64,000 bases of DNA from an uncultured Planctomycetaceae bacterium (GCA_963976765.1 CAXBME010000007.1:1-64000), one strand, 5' to 3'. Shown: positions 37,837 through 46,612, numbered from the stretch's first letter. Notes: a model not told the origin generated them from the letters alone. Program-made: numbers and translations.

Positions 37837-39282
37837 CTAATCGTCGGCGTTGCGAGTTGCCATTTTCTGCAACACCTCGGGCGACGTCCTGTTTGAGAAG
37901 AATCGGACGTTGCCGTCTCCCAGGAGAAAGTGGGCTCCCGTCCCGGCAGCGTTTCCGAAGCTCGACAGTCGCTTGTTGAGCGGGCCTTCGATGGTTCGCC
38001 AGTTTTCAGGATCGCCCCAGGCTGGCAGTGCTCTGGCAATCTCGCCGGCAATTAACGTTTGAGACATTCCATCAGAGACCTCTTCGATTCGAACCGGCGA
38101 GTTCTTGTCGAAGATTCCTGTTGGCAACAGACCCTGTTCAGTTTGTATCAGACCGCCAACTCCGGAATAGTGCGCGGTTGCAAGTCCACGGCCTGTCGGC
38201 TCGTGAGGGGCGGAGGGAATGAGAAACGTCGGTATGGTCCGGCTCATTGCAGCTGAGTTGGCGTCGTCGTTCCATGGTTTTGAAAGGTCGATCGAAGTGT
38301 AGATTTCGGTGTAGCCCAGATAGGGCAGCAGGGAAGTCATCCAGCCGTGCATGCCGACTTCCAGTCCCTCGTCGTTAACAGCGAACGTACCACCTGCCGG
38401 GAAGCTGCCCTTCTCGATCACGTAGTCAGTCAGAGCCTTGTTGATGTTGCCAAGGTTTGACTCGATGACTTCTCTGGTTGAGCGATGACGCCACGATTCG
38501 CCGAGTTCATTCAGCCAGGCCGGCCCGGCAAAAATTCCGATCAGTCCAAGGAACATCCCGACGGGGGCGAGAATCTGCGGCATCGACTCGCGCAGTCGCC
38601 GATTGGAACCCAGCGTCTGATAGCCCAGCAGCAGAGCGTAAGCACCAACAAGTGTTGCGGGAATTCTGGCGACGAATGAGGGCAGCAGATTCAGACCAGC
38701 CAGGAGAATCGAAATGACACCAGCAGCCACGGCTCCGCTGCCTCGTGGAAGCCGTGGTGGTTTCGGCTCGTCATCGTCGAGTTTTTCATCGGGCTGCGAT
38801 TGATCGGACGCGTCAAAATCATGGAGCGGAGATTCGACTTCCCAGCCGTCTTCCTCGTCGTCATCCGCCAGCTCGAAATCATCGTCCTGATCAAAGAGCT
38901 GGCTGTCAGCGTCGACGAGGTCGCTGTCGTCCCCTTGACCTTCTTCGAATAATTCAGAATCGTCCAGTTCCTCGTGCGTTTCTGAGGTTGCTGCTTCAGC
39001 TGACGATGGAGCTTCTCTCATCATCGCCCACAAGCCACGAGGCCGTTCGGCGTGTTCGACCTGAAGATCGCTGATGGTCGTTTCTTCGGATGCAGCGTCG
39101 TCGTTCGATGACCGCCCCATCACTTCCCACAGGCTCCGAGCCGGCTCTGGTGAAGGGGCATCGCTCGCTGATTCACAGCCACATTCCGGGCATGTGAAGC
39201 CTTCCGTCGCAGAGACCGGAGCGTCCACTTCAAAAGTATGGCCGTTTCGGCAGGTGATGTGTCGAGCGTTCGAGCGGGGCAT
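37837..39282 (-). CDS. Zn-ribbon / acidic linker / TM / DUF1559-like protein
   Basis: CRNGH...CPECG; D/E-rich linker; 3 TM; NLGNI..AL..Y....GSFP, HGWMTSLLPYL, DGMSQTL..GE and GAHFLLGDGNVRF motifs. Confidence 0.75.
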   Translation of the reverse strand: MPRSNARHITCRNGHTFEVDAPVSATEGFTCPECGCESASDAPSPEPARSLWEVMGRSSNDDAASEETTISDLQVEHAERPRGLWAMMREAPSSAEAATSETHEELDDSELFEEGQGDDSDLVDADSQLFDQDDDFELADDDEEDGWEVESPLHDFDASDQSQPDEKLDDDEPKPPRLPRGSGAVAAGVISILLAGLNLLPSFVARIPATLVGAYALLLGYQTLGSNRRLRESMPQILAPVGMFLGLIGIFAGPAWLNELGESWRHRSTREVIESNLGNINKALTDYVIEKGSFPAGGTFAVNDEGLEVGMHGWMTSLLPYLGYTEIYTSIDLSKPWNDDANSAAMSRTIPTFLIPSAPHEPTGRGLATAHYSGVGGLIQTEQGLLPTGIFDKNSPVRIEEVSDGMSQTLIAGEIARALPAWGDPENWRTIEGPLNKRLSSFGNAAGTGAHFLLGDGNVRFFSNRTSPEVLQKMATRNADD

Positions 39283-39365
39283 CCGGAAAGAGCTTCAACC
39301 TCGTTGAGACAGGCGTCTGAGAAGACTGTTTCGTAACCTGCCGGGCAAGGTGAAAGCAAGTATTG

Positions 39366-40313
39366 TCACGCCGCGTTGTGCAGACGCGAGCTGACATCGC
39401 GAAGTCGGCTAACTTGCTGGATCAATCGTGGCAGGCCGTCAAGGCCCACAAGGAGAAGCATCAGGTAGCGGAAGACGGCAAAGATATCTCCGGCTTGGAC
39501 GGACGGAAGATGGCACGCTCGGAAGAGGACCGCGACGATTGCTCCCAGTATGAAACATTCCATCAGACCAAAGTTGACGGCCTCGGCGTTGGAGAGTCTG
39601 ATTCGCCAGCGGGCGACTTCGTCGAAGTGGTTTCGGACATCGATCTCGTTTTGAGAATGAATGACGTCGACTTCTTTCTCCAACTCGTCGTGCAGGCCTC
39701 GACTGAGCCGACGCGTCCATTTCGAATAGTGTTGGCTTAGCAGCGCCGCCGGGATCAGCAACCCCAGACAACACGACACGATCACCCAGTCGTACCAGGC
39801 CAGCATGATGACCGAGCCGGCGACGGAGAAAGCGACCTTCATCAGCATCGGGATGGAGCGTTCAAAGAACTCGACGAACTCACGAGAAAGGGATGCCCGG
39901 GCGGTGACGCGTGAAACGTCGACGCCGGACGCTCGTTGCGAAACAATCATCCGCGTGGCCAGATCCGAATAGATCGCTGAAAACGTTCGCGTGTCGTAAA
40001 CCTGCCGGACAAGCCCCACGACGAGATGCAGAACATGCTGACCGACCAGCACGCCGACTCCAAGCATCTGCCCGGCCAGGAGATCGTTAATCGCCCAACC
40101 CAGCGCGAATGGCTGTGCCAGTCGCAGGAGATTCTCGATCGTAAACAGTGCATACGTTGCAAGAATCCGGAGCCGATTCTCGGCGAACATCGACTTCAAC
40201 CTGAAAGTTGATGCGTCGCCGAGAGCTTGTCTTTGAAATACCGGCGGCGATTTCAGCGAAGCAGGAGCCGGACCGGCGTCAACTCGTGAGACGACTGGAA
40301 TGTCAATGGGCAC
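39366..40313 (-). CDS. ABC transporter six-TM membrane domain protein (no ATPase domain)
   Basis: Six hydrophobic segments; ENLL...QPFALGWAIN, RQVYDTRTF and SREFVEFFE motifs; AGGAGG RBS. Confidence 0.75.
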   Translation of the reverse strand: MPIDIPVVSRVDAGPAPASLKSPPVFQRQALGDASTFRLKSMFAENRLRILATYALFTIENLLRLAQPFALGWAINDLLAGQMLGVGVLVGQHVLHLVVGLVRQVYDTRTFSAIYSDLATRMIVSQRASGVDVSRVTARASLSREFVEFFERSIPMLMKVAFSVAGSVIMLAWYDWVIVSCCLGLLIPAALLSQHYSKWTRRLSRGLHDELEKEVDVIHSQNEIDVRNHFDEVARWRIRLSNAEAVNFGLMECFILGAIVAVLFRACHLPSVQAGDIFAVFRYLMLLLVGLDGLPRLIQQVSRLRDVSSRLHNAA

Positions 40314-40357
40314 GGCTCGTCCTCCTGAATTTCATTTCGTTCGCTTTGCATCAGCAT

Positions 40358-41128
40358 TCAGCTGAAAGCGATCAGCCCAACTTCGCTGCAGTCGGTCAGT
40401 GTTTCGAGCAAGGTTTCGTCGTTGAGCGACGTTGTCAGATCGAGTTGCTTCTTCAGGTTCACGAGGCGGCACGGGCCGAGATCGGCAAGTGTCTGTACCA
40501 GGGCTCGCCCTTCAGGCTCAAGGATCACTGTTCGTACTTCGGTCTGAAACGCGAAGAACAGAACTTCAACTCCGTCTGCGGGAGACTCGTTCTCGCCAAT
40601 CAGCAGGCCCGTTTCGAACACGGCTCGAGTTCTCATCGGGTTGAGGTGAATACTCAAACCGTCGTTGGAATCTAACTCAGATGCGAGCTGTTCGTTCAGG
40701 CTGACAAGTTCCTGAAACCGAACGTGGCCGAGACGGTTTCGTCGCCCAGCCTCTTCCACGGCAAATCGACTTCTGATGACCAGAACAATGTCCCGTTGTT
40801 CCGGGGTCAGCTCGATGACCGTCGGCAACCAGCGTACGAAACGGTCCGTGTCGCTGGTGCCGGTGTCGTAAGCGGCGAGGGGGATTTCCCGGATGTACCG
40901 ACTGATCAGACTCGGCAGTTCTTCCATGTTGTCTGCAAACATTTCGAGCTGGTCTTCCAGTTTGTCGCCGCGTTTGTCGAGATTTCCCGAAGTAAACATC
41001 TCGACGAGTTCATGTGACTGCCCAGCGGAGACGTCGCCGTGGACGACGTCATTCTTTGCGACGGCCAGCGATGTCGCGATGCGCGAAAGTTGTTCCGCGT
41101 AGTCTTTCAGTAGGGTGTCGTTGCTCAT
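40358..41128 (-). CDS. Putative MNIO partner protein (RRE/winged-helix-like C-terminus)
   Basis: ATGA overlap with the DUF692 stop; C-terminal beta-strands plus ILEPEGRALVQTL...LLETLTDCSEVGLI resemble a PqqD/wHTH pattern (inferred). Confidence 0.6.
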   Translation of the reverse strand: MSNDTLLKDYAEQLSRIATSLAVAKNDVVHGDVSAGQSHELVEMFTSGNLDKRGDKLEDQLEMFADNMEELPSLISRYIREIPLAAYDTGTSDTDRFVRWLPTVIELTPEQRDIVLVIRSRFAVEEAGRRNRLGHVRFQELVSLNEQLASELDSNDGLSIHLNPMRTRAVFETGLLIGENESPADGVEVLFFAFQTEVRTVILEPEGRALVQTLADLGPCRLVNLKKQLDLTTSLNDETLLETLTDCSEVGLIAFS

Positions 41129-41967
41129 GCTGGCACCTCGACCTGTTCCGCGATCTCGCGAACGCGGCGGATTTCTGATCGCCAGCCGGCTTCGTCAGGA
41201 AAGTCCTGGTCACGCTCGACGAAGACGGCGTCTACTTTTCCACGACCCTGCTCAAGTGAGAACCGATACAGATCCCAAACCGCATCAGGGATCGGTTCCG
41301 AGTGGCTGTCGATGTACATGTTCGATCGTTCGTCGAAGAAGCCTCCGGCCAGATGCATCTGCACGGCTTCCGCGTGAGGCATTACGGATTCGATGAATTC
41401 GTACGGATCGAAATTGAAGTTCGTCGCGTTGGCGTAAACGTTGGTGACGTCGAGTAACCAGCCGCAGCCCGTGCACTGAAGCATCTTTGAAACAAAGTCG
41501 GCTTCGGACATCGTGCCTTGAAACTCGAACATGTACGCAATGGTTTCGACGTAAAAGCGAGTGTCGCCGAGCCGCTTCTGAATGTGGTCAATGTTTCGGC
41601 AGGTCGCGGTGAGAGCGGCTTCGGTCCAGGGCGGCGGAGCAAAGTGTCCCATCTCGACGCCGTTGTCTCCGTCACGAGTGAAGCCGAGGTGGTCGCTGAC
41701 GGACGATGCTCCGTTTTCGATCGCGATCGCTCGGAGGGCTTCGAGGTAGTTTTGATTCGGTGGTTCCGGGCTGGCGATCGAAAGTTTCAATGCATGAACG
41801 CTGACGTGGTCGAGATCCAGATCCTGAAGGTAGCGGTCGACTCGCAGTGGATCGTCAGCACGCTCGAAGGTGATTTCGGCGGCGTTGATGGCCGGGTCGT
41901 CCATGATCGGTCGGTTCTGCTCTCGAATTGCGTATCCGATGGCTGGGGTTGTGGCAGAGTGGCTCAC
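41125..41967 (-). CDS. DUF692 family multinuclear non-heme iron oxidase (MNIO)
   Basis: VHALKLSI, SDHLGF, VET, LLDVTNVYAN, MHLAGG, IDSHSEPI and VERD metal-ligand motifs; AGGAG RBS before the GTG. Confidence 0.92.
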   Translation of the reverse strand: MSHSATTPAIGYAIREQNRPIMDDPAINAAEITFERADDPLRVDRYLQDLDLDHVSVHALKLSIASPEPPNQNYLEALRAIAIENGASSVSDHLGFTRDGDNGVEMGHFAPPPWTEAALTATCRNIDHIQKRLGDTRFYVETIAYMFEFQGTMSEADFVSKMLQCTGCGWLLDVTNVYANATNFNFDPYEFIESVMPHAEAVQMHLAGGFFDERSNMYIDSHSEPIPDAVWDLYRFSLEQGRGKVDAVFVERDQDFPDEAGWRSEIRRVREIAEQVEVPA

Positions 41968-42022
41968 GGCTGGCTCCTGTGAAATTTTTCCTGACGGATT
42001 CCTGGTTGAAGTTAGAAATCCA

Positions 42023-42077
42023 GAATCAACTGCCGGACTGACAACCGGGGTCAGGTATCAGCCCGGCAGTCGGATTC
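42023..42077 (-). promoter_or_regulatory. Stem-loop between the precursor and MNIO genes
   Basis: gaatc-aactgccgg-actga ... tcagc-ccggcagt-cg-gattc inverted repeat, 11 nt past the precursor stop. Confidence 0.55.
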
Positions 42078-42088
42078 GAGTCGCCGAA

Positions 42089-42226
42089 CTACCTTCGACA
42101 GCGGCAGCAACGGCAGCAACGACAGCAGCAGCGACTTGCAGCTGCCTTCTTCGCTCGTTCTGAAGTCCGTAGCGATTTGATTTCGCGAACGGCCTTCTGC
42201 CTCGTCTGTGTGGCTGAGTTCGTCAT
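42089..42226 (-). CDS. Putative Cys/Arg-rich RiPP precursor peptide (45 aa)
   Basis: MTNSATQTRQKAVREIKSLRTSERAKKAAASRCCCRCCRCCRCRR; GGAGAGG RBS before ATG 42226; directly upstream of the MNIO. The track over-extends it to 42367. Confidence 0.85.
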   Translation of the reverse strand: MTNSATQTRQKAVREIKSLRTSERAKKAAASRCCCRCCRCCRCRR

Positions 42227-42954
42227 GGGGATTTCCTCTCCATAGTGCCTCGGAATTCGCCCCGGCAGTGTTTTCGGGTCGGACACGACCAGGGTGATTG
42301 AGGCATGGCCTTGTTTAACGCCAGCCAGAGAACATCTCAGCCGACGCTCCGGTAAGTTCCGGATCAACGATGGCCTGAAGAAGGCACGAGCGATGCCCGA
42401 ATCGCGAAAGATGAGAATCTGTCGTGCTCTAACCTGTTTCCAAAGAAGAAGTTGCCATGTTGAAAGAAATTCTTTGTGGCACGATCGAAAAAGCCGCTGC
42501 GGTTGTCAGAGCGACCGCAGCGGCAGTCGCTCTGACGACATTTCGAGCCGTTGCTGCCGCATCGCTCGACAACTGCGGACCACGTTTATGCGATCGTTTT
42601 TGAGGCTGAGTAGAAATACGTCGCTGCTGAAATCTGCGTAGCATTCCAGCGAAACTGCGGAAACAGGAACATTCCGGGCAGATGGTGCGTGTCGAGTCGG
42701 TAATGCGACTCTGGATTTGAGTTTACACGCTTCCGGGTTCTCACTATATGTTCGCGGCGTTGCATTCGGGCAGAGACTGCGCCTGTTCCCTGGACGTGTC
42801 TGCCTGTTAATCAGAGGCTACTTTGAATGAACAGAGTCGCTGATTGGCTGGGCGGCGTTGCCTTTGGTGCAACGCTCACTTGCCTGCTCACTACCGAGTG
42901 GCAGCACGATGTGCCACCTGACGCGAATATGAACAATTCCTGGAGGAAACTCTC

Positions 42955-43185
42955 GTGGCTACTGAAGAAAAAGTAATCGGAATCGTCAGCGAACAATTGG
43001 GCGTTCCGAAAGAAGATGTCAGTCGTGAATCATCTTTTGTTGACGACCTGAAGGCGGATTCGCTGGACGTTGTCGAGTTGGTCATGGAGTTCGAAGACGA
43101 ATTCGGAATCACCATTCCCGATGACGACTACGACAAGATCAAGACTGTCGGAGACGCTATTACCTACATCGACGAGAAGAGCTAG
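42955..43185 (+). CDS. acpP: Acyl carrier protein
   Basis: [21 protein letters not shown] motif; GGAGG RBS. Confidence 0.96.
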
Positions 43186-44995: not shown

Positions 44996-45292
44996 AGGGT
45001 GGCACAGCCGGATTGGCTGTGTCGCGCAGCAACAAGATGCTTCATCGTCCGGGGGCGATTGAACCGAAAGCCGTTGTTTGCATCGTGCGTTCACGATGAA
45101 ACGTGCTGTGCCTGCGGCTCCAACCATTCTGGTCGGGCCACTCATTTTCAGCTGAGCTTTCAGCTGCCTTGAAACGGGTTTGGCACCTTCTACAATCCTC
45201 GCCAGTTACGCGATGGATTCCGCCTGCTTGCTCAGCGGGCGATGACGCTTTCCAGAGACCACCCTCACCAGACTGCAGAAAGAGATATTGCG

Positions 45293-45835
45293 ATGACCGT
45301 TCAGATTGGCCAGGCCGCTCCGGATTTTGAAGTTCAGGCTTACGACCGCACCAAAGATGGCACCGACGATCAGTTTTCAACGATCAAACTGTCTGATCTG
45401 AAGGGCAAATGGACCTGCCTGTTTTTCTACCCGCTCGACTTCACATTCGTCTGCCCGACAGAAATCGTTGCTTTCAACAAGGCACTCGGCGAATTTGAAG
45501 ATCGTGACTGCGTCGTCCTGACAGCCAGCACCGACAGTGTTTACTCGCACAAAGGCTGGTGCGACGCTCACGAAGATCTGGCCAGCATGGCCTACCCGAT
45601 GCTCGCCGACACGAACCACAACCTGTCGCGAGACTACGGCGTCCTGATCGAAGAAAAAGGTATCGCGCTGCGAGGCGTCTTTCTGATCGACCCGCAGGGT
45701 GTCACTCGCTGGATTTCGATCCACGATCTGGGCGTTGGCCGTAACGTCGACGAAGTTCTGCGAGTCCTCGACGCTCTGCAGACCGACAAGCTCTGCCCAT
45801 GCAACTGGAAGAAGGGCGACGAGACGATTAACTAG
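45293..45835 (+). CDS. ahpC: 2-Cys peroxiredoxin
   Basis: FFYPLDFTFVCPTE, GRNVDEVLR and LCPCNW motifs. Confidence 0.93.
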   Translation: MTVQIGQAAPDFEVQAYDRTKDGTDDQFSTIKLSDLKGKWTCLFFYPLDFTFVCPTEIVAFNKALGEFEDRDCVVLTASTDSVYSHKGWCDAHEDLASMAYPMLADTNHNLSRDYGVLIEEKGIALRGVFLIDPQGVTRWISIHDLGVGRNVDEVLRVLDALQTDKLCPCNWKKGDETIN

Positions 45836-45842
45836 AGTTGGT

Positions 45843-45918
45843 CGCAGGGGGCGTCTAGACGCACCTTTGGCCCGTTAATGAAGCCTTTGCTTCGAAGTGG
45901 TGCGTTGCGCACCCTACG
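45843..45918. repeat. GTAG-type REP doublet
   Basis: cgcagggggcgtctagacgcacc ... ggtgcgttgcgcaccctacg. Confidence 0.65.
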
Positions 45919-45929
45919 GTGAGATTGCC

Positions 45930-45963
45930 ACGGCAGGCTGATTGATTTCGGCCTGCCGTTTTT
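45930..45963 (+). terminator. Terminator-like hairpin between ahpC and the ahpD-like gene
   Basis: acggcaggc...gcctgccgt followed by tttt. Confidence 0.6.
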
Positions 45964-45985
45964 CAATAGGTATCGGAGTTATCTC

Positions 45986-46612
45986 ATGTCACGCATTCAA
46001 CCGCTGCCCGAATCGGAAGCCGAAGGCAAACTCGAACGCACGTACGGTCGCATCAAAGAGATGCTCGAAGCCGATGCCGTGCCTGAGCCATTTCTGACTT
46101 ACGGTCGTGTCGAAGCTTTCCTCCAGGACTTCTATATGAACTTCAAAAAGTTCGTGTACACCGACGGAGCTCTGGATGCGAAGACGAAAGCGATCCTCGG
46201 CTTGGCAGTCAGCGGCCACTATGGCTGCACGGTGTGGCTCGACTTTTTTACCGAGCGTTTGAAGTCGCTCGGTGCGGAGGATGGCGCGGCGGCGGACGTG
46301 CTGGCGGTGGCGTCAACTAACTCGATGTACAACTCCTTCTTCAAATTTCGAGATCTGAGTGGTTCGGAAGTCTTCGGCGGGATGTCCGTCGGTCTGCGGG
46401 CTCACACATTCATGAACACGTCGCTTGATGACAAGACGGTTGAGTTGATCAACACAGCGATCAGTAACCTGAATGCGTGCAAGCCGTGCACCTCGGGCCA
46501 CGTGACCAAGAGCCGCGATCTGGGAGCATCCGACGATCAGCTTCTGGAAGCCATCCAGTGTGCCTCAACCATGGCTGCCGGATGCAGTTTTCTGAAAGCT
46601 GCGGAAGCCTGA
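45986..46612 (+). CDS. AhpD-like alkylhydroperoxidase / CMD family protein
   Basis: MYNSFFKFR and ELINTAIS.LNACKPCTSGH (E..CxxC..H) motifs; follows ahpC. Confidence 0.8.
   Translation: MSRIQPLPESEAEGKLERTYGRIKEMLEADAVPEPFLTYGRVEAFLQDFYMNFKKFVYTDGALDAKTKAILGLAVSGHYGCTVWLDFFTERLKSLGAEDGAAADVLAVASTNSMYNSFFKFRDLSGSEVFGGMSVGLRAHTFMNTSLDDKTVELINTAISNLNACKPCTSGHVTKSRDLGASDDQLLEAIQCASTMAAGCSFLKAAEA

Follow-up and report, generated by a model that had tools for sequence, protein, structure and literature searches.

What do four tightly packed genes, all on the minus strand at 39366..42226 of a planctomycete contig, produce? The genes lie in a window of 64,000 nucleotides (the whole stretch of DNA that was analysed) from an uncultured Planctomycetaceae bacterium, GCA_963976765.1 CAXBME010000007.1:1-64000, and coordinates given here without a locus label follow the numbering of that whole window. 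They encode a short Cys- and Arg-rich peptide, a DUF692 protein belonging to the MNIOs (oxidative enzymes that depend on multinuclear non-heme iron), a partner protein and a membrane protein of the PF13748 family. From the results presented here we consider it very probable that the operon is a biosynthetic unit for an undescribed family of peptides that are made on the ribosome and modified after translation (RiPPs), whose precursor would be modified by the MNIO in a leader-dependent manner. This MNIO RiPP family of Planctomycetota is real and strongly conserved, and apparently it has not been described before.

The cassette and its precursor peptide

Relatives of the locus were collected by searching species-representative genomes with the MNIO (13 loci), 401 genomes of Planctomycetota with a partner profile (matches in 11 genomes, all of the window's own family) and metagenome contigs with the same profile (43 loci, including a copy that is 100% identical to the window). 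All four genes are found together in 25 of the 30 loci that are informative at both ends. Among the 36 loci with at least 450 nt of sequence upstream of the MNIO gene, a small open reading frame (ORF) with the leader motif described below is present upstream in 34, the exceptions being L066 and L068; several of these loci are near-duplicates, with 30 distinct peptides among 36 occurrences. The partner gene adjoins the MNIO gene in 41 of 50 informative loci, and a PF13748 gene follows the partner gene in 33 of the 40 loci with enough downstream sequence. The initial annotation of this DNA, made from the window alone, had named as a check whether MNIO homologues sit beside RCC-repeat peptides and six-TM ABC genes, which is what these counts bear out. 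The gene arrangement is far beyond chance. Neighbours of the cassette vary (squalene-hopene cyclase, aminotransferase, CBS proteins, SBP56, kinases and others), the gene behind the PF13748 gene being usually convergent, and because they differ between loci the four genes can be regarded, on sequence comparison, as a conserved unit. A scan of 30 proteins that flank the cassette in 20 loci, and of six proteins from loci with Cys/His cores, gave no further recurring gene apart from CBS-domain proteins, which recur in two closely related loci only. So far the family appears to be restricted to Planctomycetota, including marine members.

The precursor of the window, MTNSATQTRQKAVREIKSLRTSERAKKAAASRCCCRCCRCCRCRR, has eight Cys residues and a net charge of +12; as initially annotated, it is an ORF of 45 residues with its own ribosome-binding site (RBS). 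Its basic leader contains the motif KAVREIKSLRT, a linker of 11 residues follows, and RCCCRCCRCCRCRR forms the core at the C-terminus; the peptide has no hydrophobic signal segment. Its sole Pfam match, DUF2477, is below threshold, and no second copy of the precursor was found in the genome (next best E 0.83). Throughout the family the leader motif is K-A-V-R-E-[IL]-x-x-L-R-T, followed by 10-13 residues and then by C-[R/H]-x triplet repeats. The leader profile matches the window with E 1.1e-11 and also matches 35 related locus fragments. The alignment of the 30 distinct peptides shows no variation at E15, L19 and R20 and hardly any at R14 and T21, and conservation of the leader reaches down to 59% MNIO identity. 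A search with the peptide profile against 1.84 billion cluster representatives gave 52 proteins at E <= 0.001, 20 of them at E <= 1e-10. The leader motif is present in all 52, and in 49 its distance to the first Cys is 10-13 residues. By core class 40 are CCR-type, 5 CH-type and 7 other; one of the last group, P0167, has a window-like leader and a tail without any Cys. The C-terminal residue of these 52 precursors (P0118-P0169) is aromatic in 22 (W 16, F 4, Y 2) and Arg in 19.

Codon usage in the core points to selection on the protein. Both Cys codons (TGC 126, TGT 59) and all six Arg codons (CGC 60, CGT 50, CGG 16, CGA 13, AGG 3, AGA 1) are in use across the loci, yet the amino-acid core RCCRCCRCCR is kept. 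Since the codons vary freely while the amino-acid core stays, the peptide, judged by these substitutions, is a real gene under purifying selection as a protein and not a chance-read DNA repeat. The CCR units vary from 2 to 4 even among close relatives, which is consistent with slippage of short DNA repeats under selection for the motif.

The layout of the locus is given in Table 1. It agrees with the initial reading of four co-oriented genes, three with an RBS (that of the precursor gene is GGAGAGGA, 7 nt ahead of the ATG) and the fourth joined by an ATGA overlap, through which the start of the partner is translationally coupled to the stop of the MNIO.

Table 1. Features of the cassette and its downstream neighbour, in whole-window coordinates
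Feature	Position	Strand	Remarks
Precursor peptide gene	42089..42226	-	45 aa; ORF and RBS; span includes stop
Two intergenic RNA hairpins	41995..42077	-	between precursor gene and MNIO gene
MNIO (DUF692) gene	41125..41967	-	280 aa; GTG start; AGGAG 6 nt upstream
Partner gene	40358..41128	-	256 aa; ATG start overlaps MNIO stop as ATGA
Membrane-protein gene	39366..40313	-	315 aa; GTG start; AGGAGG 7 nt upstream
DUF1559 protein gene	37837..39282	-	481 aa; co-oriented, next downstream of operon

The first of the two hairpins (about 24 bp, 42023..42077) begins 12 nt past the precursor stop codon, and the second (9 bp) occupies 41995..42022. The region 41960..42095 folds with -57.3 kcal/mol (z -5.67), a stability reached by none of 200 shuffles, and the intergenic region between precursor and MNIO genes folds at z <= -2 in 8 of 14 related loci, though their sequences differ. 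A consensus terminator scan called no canonical U-tract terminator at the hairpins. A stable hairpin behind the precursor gene is a common means in RiPP operons of keeping precursor mRNA in excess. A likely role here is transcript stabilisation or partial termination, which would set the ratio of precursor to enzyme. In 39000..43000 a scan for sigma-70 promoters gave no sites and the number of terminator-like sites was at chance level (4 vs 4.1 expected).

The protein of the next gene downstream matches zinc ribbons weakly at its N-terminus, contains a long acidic stretch of low complexity and carries a DUF1559 domain at its C-terminus. Such a gene follows the cassette only in the close relatives L001, L003-5, L008, L039 and L042 and is missing from L006, L007 and all distant loci, and for this reason it is probably outside the system. 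On the other side of the operon lies a divergent gene pair, presumably acpP-fabF from its sequences. Beyond it, about 3 kb from the operon at 45242..46612 (+), a 197-aa gene with an FVCPTE motif is followed by one for a 208-aa protein with a CxxC-like motif; going by sequences alone, we take these to be peroxiredoxin-like and of the AhpD/carboxymuconolactone-decarboxylase type, respectively.

The MNIO, its partner and the membrane protein

The MNIO matches PF05114 (MbnB_TglH_ChrH) with E 1.2e-55 and 189.1 bits against a cut-off of 25, over profile positions 18-262 of 263, and its net charge is -25. H58, D92/H93, E141, D173/N176, H205, D220/H222, E251 and D253 are invariant in 29 of 29 family members, and the ligand motifs correspond in alignment to those of 3bww, a DUF692 protein of solved structure. 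MNIOs as a class bind two or three iron ions and oxidise peptides. In a residue-by-residue assignment we take these H/D/E/N motif residues to be the iron-site ligands, in line with the His/Glu/Asp motifs recognised in the initial annotation. The NCBIfam models score as follows: BufB 155.8 bits (cut-off 310), HvfB 139.7 (360), ApyH 75.9 (400), ChrH 39.1 (600) and MbnB 31.7 (325). These scores place the enzyme nearest to the thiooxazole-forming BufB and HvfB, yet outside every curated NCBIfam family. Membership of the ChrH, MbnB and ApyH families was rejected for scores far under the cut-offs. The protein also ends with its TIM-barrel match and has no ChrH-type extra C-terminal helical bundle. 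Among PDB sequences it matches 3bww (1e-18), TglH (1.9e-12, residues 115-250) and MbnB (3.9e-7). Its homologues form 616 clusters at E <= 1e-10, identity being 70% or more throughout the best 120, and the named clusters are all from Planctomycetota and annotated just as DUF692 or hypothetical. Complex prediction for MNIO, partner and peptide scored 0.87, a control with the MNIO replaced 0.78 and unrelated peptides 0.00-0.01, which weighs neither way.

Some variants of the MNIO gene were also seen. Outside the window, the genome carries a second MNIO gene at G000:C7:82362..84224 (L014 1411..3273), encoding 326 aa with a much stronger PF05114 score than the window MNIO (360.8 bits). A 293-aa ORF comes directly after it and a thiolase-like gene lies upstream; over 1.4 kb on the upstream side no ORF for a Cys-rich peptide was seen. 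If the 293-aa ORF is a DUF2063-type partner, the two would be a bufferin/HvfBC-type pair. In the near-identical L040 (2697..3433) and L076 (3765..4501) the MNIO match is in two pieces with a poor N-terminal part, possibly a frameshift or assembly error; their precursor core, CCCRCRR, is the shortest seen there. The metagenomic loci L066 (3503..5238) and L068 (1078..2857) have an MNIO that is 68-69% identical and forms its own clade, with a PilT-like ATPase gene upstream; their precursor may be encoded elsewhere or lost.

Three types of core were found in the family. Type A, (R)CC-RCC-RCC-R..., is that of most loci including the window. Type B, FCHGCH or FCHRCHRCH, is present in three loci labelled Pirellulales, Planctomycetia and Frigoriglobus, and three genomes of one sister genus have type C, in which the unit CR[S/N/G/R/V] is repeated seven to ten times, as in the L029 core RCCRSCRSCRSCRNCRVCRSCRSCRSCRSCR. 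All of them can be expressed as tandem C-[R/H]-x triplets; in type A, x is Cys. When 29 MNIOs were placed in a maximum-likelihood tree, those of types B and C fell into one clade each, with 100% support and long branches against a type A background. The position after the invariant Asp253 was mapped by aligning the ERD motif with 3bww. Of the 29 enzymes, 25 have Gln there; Ala occurs in all three of type C and in the one from L072, a locus whose contig does not include the peptide region. According to PMC13097082, the equivalent Asp of FonB is the proposed catalytic base. The residue that follows it, which is Phe in FonB and Asp in BufB2 and other Cys-Lys enzymes, is in contact with the surroundings of the substrate Cys and is a specificity determinant. 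The apparent co-variation of enzyme and core is a lead rather than proof, given the small sample and the kinship of the type C genomes. The three Cys/His loci, L009, L010 and L011, are all without PF13748. In L009 and L010 the peptide gene retains its leader and lies about 1.3 kb from the MNIO gene, with one gene without Pfam match between them (L009 3729..4943, L010 4021..4854), and in L011 (5797..7860) extra ORFs stand between the MNIO and partner genes.

The partner has a net charge of -20 and matches no Pfam family at E <= 1 and no NCBIfam model. Its homologues fall into 117 clusters (90%), all unnamed or called 'hypothetical' and none with a precomputed Pfam domain, the named ones being from Planctomycetota. 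When its AlphaFold model (51 sequences; predicted local distance difference test, pLDDT, 91.2; predicted template-modelling score 0.83) was compared with 48,161 representative PDB chains by VIA-align, the first rank was NGO1945 (3dee, Z 13.4, 189 residues) and the second TglI (8hci_C of the TglHI complex, Z 13.2, 226 residues). The 268-residue chain of 8hci was assigned to TglI because chain D is the 304-residue DUF692 protein. Foldseek ranks 1-3 were 8hi7_A (E 3.1e-4), 8hci_A and 3dee (E 1.5e-2). Residues ~145-256 match RiPP recognition element (RRE) parts of TbtB (Z 9.3), MibB (8.1), ThcOx (7.8), TbiB1 (6.5), lasso B1 (6.2) and PqqD (6.1), and the fold match to MbnC is weak (Z 5.3). Helical models can reach Z ~13 by helix arrangement alone; the fold match probably stands despite this caveat, the top two being known MNIO partners and the C-terminal domain matching independently. 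A profile of the partner against PDB sequences gave nothing significant (best E 0.09), so that its kinship to NGO1945 and TglI is visible by fold alone. The model indicates an N-terminal DUF2063-like helical domain and a C-terminal RRE domain, a winged helix that is predicted to bind leaders.

In the accessible part of Antoine et al. (2025, PMC12452194) DUF2063-like partners that are missed by the Pfam signature are called PME-type 2. Since the protein encoded here follows the MNIO gene, has no DUF2063 signature and is modelled with an NGO1945/TglI-like fold, it is best classed as a PME-type 2 MNIO partner and not as a new kind of protein. As far as the same source can be followed, a precursor without signal peptide correlates with a PME-type 2 partner, and this operon fits. 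Stand-alone partner-like genes, 24-43% identical to the window partner, were seen in L030-L036, L051, L052 and L077, with no MNIO homologue within the ~1.6-7 kb of upstream sequence; in L032 and L033 they are downstream of apparent flagellar hook genes.

The membrane protein matches PF13748 (ABC_membrane_3) with E 2.3e-52 and 178.2 bits against a cut-off of 27. In its model (pLDDT 77) there are six long helices, and 36 residues at the N-terminus are disordered; a crude hydropathy scan picked out four to five regions only. Foldseek matches are BmrA, TM287/288, ABCB10, MsbA and PCAT1, with E from 5e-4 to 1e-2 and query-normalised TM-scores of 0.27-0.48, a moderate match by which the protein is predicted to have the fold of a type-IV ABC exporter transmembrane domain. 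The family, the six-helix model and the exporter matches are in keeping with the six-TM ABC-type protein of the initial annotation. The nucleotide-binding domain that a complete ABC exporter carries, fused or alongside, is not seen: the protein ends after the membrane domain, and no ATPase is encoded beside the PF13748 gene here or among the 30 flanking proteins of related loci. Longer, ATPase-fused PF13748 relatives were not found either, which is weak evidence, and the PF13748 clusters in the Atlas are stand-alone proteins of ~300 aa, mostly from Pseudomonadota. Where loci are informative at both ends, the gene is present in 25 of 25 with Cys/Arg cores vs none of three with Cys/His cores. 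Because of this distribution the role of the protein seems tied to the polycationic core, in export or self-protection, and not to the enzyme reaction. In L007 (6773..9296) the PF13748 homologue is in two pieces ~1.7 kb apart (query residues 39-264 and 274-311), which suggests insertion or disruption of the gene.

Proposed pathway and rival explanations

If the operon is a RiPP pathway, its course could be as follows. The precursor would remain in the cytoplasm, since it has no signal peptide or hydrophobic segment, and the RRE domain of the partner would bind the leader motif. Partner and MNIO would form a complex, as TglI does with TglH and MbnC with MbnB, and these two acidic proteins could hold the basic peptide by charge complementarity. 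The fixed linker between leader motif and core may act as a ruler which places the core in the iron active site, where the MNIO would oxidise the Cys residues of successive C-[R/H]-x triplets one by one. The PF13748 protein would then export the polycationic product or protect its producer. As for the chemistry, a four-electron conversion of Cys to 5-thiooxazole or a related oxazolone-thioamide is favoured because the MNIO scores nearest to BufB and HvfB; by this analogy we give it a little less than an even chance, the remainder falling to other or new Cys chemistry. For 5-thiooxazole, UV absorbance near 305 nm is reported in PMC13097082. The product would in that case be a cationic, thiolate-rich metal binder; it may be that every Cys is modified and that the product chelates metal. 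It is possible, though rather doubtful, that the system represents a new class of RiPP, whose MNIO/PME-type 2 pair would work along a tandem C-[R/H]-x repeat that includes adjacent Cys-Cys, giving closely spaced or contiguous sulfur heterocycles or unseen Cys chemistry among guanidiniums, with PF13748 as a dedicated exporter or immunity protein. If true, this would be the first functional context for the PF13748 family.

Several observations weigh against a complete, MNIO-dependent RiPP pathway. Nine informative loci and L035 carry partner-like genes with no MNIO nearby, and the partner family is therefore not exclusive to the MNIO system. In L066 and L068 the MNIO and partner are encoded, but neither a peptide nor a PF13748 gene could be detected, and the enzyme chemistry can do without PF13748, which is absent from the three Cys/His-core loci. 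The reactions of MNIOs differ widely, and as this enzyme is under every NCBIfam equivalog cut-off its chemistry cannot be transferred with confidence. No protease or ATPase that could account for leader removal or power export recurs in the neighbourhood of related loci. What stood of the initially annotated complete pathway is a conserved RiPP-type cluster; its completeness is not borne out, given the lack of a recurring protease or ATPase and of a nucleotide-binding domain.

The most serious alternative is that the locus is a plain member of the captophorin/bufferin class, making 5-thiooxazole copper peptides from an unusual precursor and bringing nothing new in kind. BufB and HvfB are the best-scoring models, the partner shares its overall fold with DUF2063 partners, and the Cys-then-basic motif is like that of 'Cys-Lys' captophorin precursors in the available text of PMC13097082. 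We nevertheless hold this to be improbable: the two scores reach only about half the cut-offs, and MNIO-PME1 clusters are defined by a DUF2063 Pfam signature that the partner does not show. A signal peptide is missing from the precursor and a DoxX gene from the operon, and at the specificity position the enzymes have Gln or Ala instead of Phe or Asp. Neither the core motifs nor 'Planctomyc' were found in two supplementary files of PMC13097082. The intergenic hairpin invites another reading, in which the small ORF is a cis-acting regulatory leader peptide and stalling at its Cys or Arg codons causes attenuation at the hairpin according to Cys or Arg supply. A short Cys/Arg-rich ORF, a very stable hairpin 12 nt later, both ahead of structural genes, and the recurrence of hairpins in related loci would all suit such a device. 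It would hardly require the non-repeat leader to be conserved at the amino-acid level with invariant residues, nor the spacing from leader motif to first Cys to be fixed; a whole gene separates the peptide and MNIO genes in L009 and L010, the partner has a predicted leader-binding RRE domain, and no U-tract terminator was called at the hairpin. We regard attenuation as extremely unlikely.

Cys/Arg-rich peptides can bind metals or membranes unmodified, and the peptide might thus be a metallothionein-like or cationic antimicrobial one, unmodified or disulfide-bonded, with the MNIO pair acting on another substrate. L066 and L068, where MNIO and partner are kept with no nearby peptide, would speak for this. 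The tight linkage of the peptide to MNIO and partner in 34 of 36 loci, the MNIO clades that follow core type and the fixed spacing of leader and core make it very unlikely. Finally, at the DNA level the core repeats the short tandem unit TGC TGC CGN, in numbers that vary between close relatives, as could be expected if the ORF were a chance frame over low-complexity GC-rich DNA. The RBS, the leader kept down to 59% MNIO identity, the synonymous substitutions throughout the core and the 52 profile-search representatives with the motif in all of them leave this idea next to no probability, and the conservation data refute it as far as sequence analysis goes.

The reading of the operon as a producer of an MNIO-modified, leader-dependent RiPP would have consequences beyond this locus. 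MNIOs are a fast-growing source of unprecedented peptide chemistry, and the surveys of them, in their available parts, are dominated by Pseudomonadota precursors with signal peptides and DUF2063 partners. The cassette of four genes is minimal and easy to express. Its substrate is a simple repeat that exists in three natural versions (CCR, CR[S/N/G], CH[G/R]), each with its own enzyme clade, which makes a ready-made experiment on MNIO specificity and a test case for MNIO action on adjacent cysteines. The system also opens a first way to learn what PF13748 membrane proteins do, and its product would be a Planctomycetota-specific specialised peptide metabolite, found in marine members too.

Comparison with known systems

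The initial annotation did not recognise the precursor type and gene layout from characterised families, and we found none alike: leader, core and layout were not found in the MNIO literature searched, though a sequence similarity network cluster that includes these enzymes is possible in figures or bioRxiv supplements outside that search. The absence of a Sec signal, of ECF/anti-sigma genes and of DoxX, noted at the same time, also holds, as the precursor has no hydrophobic segment and no such family was detected in the five genes scanned. The main text of PMC12452194, as far as available, contains no 'Planctomyc', 'ABC' or PF13748, and its supplements, one of them in part, contain no RCCRCC, CCRCCR or PF13748. 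In the accessible text of PMC13056109 small Planctomycetota clusters are mentioned only within the ChrH subfamily, which has the C-terminal helical bundle; these were rejected as the same family, the MNIO studied here being outside that subfamily. Gammaproteobacterial DUF692/DUF2063 clusters with six-Cys peptides are described in PMC8692599, likewise available in part.

The operon shares with methanobactin (MbnA-MbnB-MbnC) a leader-dependent precursor without signal peptide, and in methanobactin Cys residues modified by MNIO and partner serve to chelate metal. In contrast to it, the enzyme falls far short of the MbnB model, the partner is a poor match to MbnC, and no MbnM/MbnT/MbnN-type genes were seen among the neighbours. 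The pearlin/3-thiaglutamate system TglHI and systems with PME-type 2 partners (ApyHI, PbsCD; PMC12452194, in its available parts) also have precursors without signal peptide, and TglI too is a partner without DUF2063 signature and with an NGO1945-like structure. However, the MNIO resembles TglH only modestly (E 1.9e-12), the substrate here is an internal poly-Cys repeat and not a single C-terminal residue, and no amino-acid-adding ligase or other pearlin gene is present in the operon. The 'adjamnio' candidates (Antoine et al. 2025, PMC12452194) are, in the text available, Cys-motif peptides beside small uncharacterised MNIO clusters, and some of their precursors similarly have no signal peptide and occur with PME-type 2 partners. 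They differ in that the named examples come from Massilia, Hahella and Novilysobacter and in that the lengths in Table 2 of that paper range from 119 to 386 residues.

Captophorin clusters, which comprise those of bufferin, oxazolin and fontiphorin, combine an MNIO at BufB or HvfB equivalog score with a DUF2063 (PF09836) partner, neither of which is found here, and their precursor types (DUF2282, Lys-Cys with EGKCG, and Cys-Lys, usually with signal peptide) do not include the (CCR)n core of this family. The Buf2 bufferins or 'Cys-Lys' captophorins (BufA2-BufB2-BufC2) nevertheless resemble it, since they too, in the parts of PMC13097082 and PMC12452194 available, combine an MNIO and a two-domain partner with a Cys-rich ribosomal peptide that has a basic residue after Cys. 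The predicted partner fold, a helical domain and an RRE, is also the same, and BufB is the best-scoring model. On the other hand, that score is half the BufB cut-off, and the partner has no DUF2063 signature. The leader here is cytoplasmic, without Sec/Tat signal, and a PF13748 protein stands in place of DoxX. The core is a short C-terminal, Arg-rich tandem of triplets, and at the specificity position the enzymes carry Gln or Ala where those of Buf2 carry Asp.

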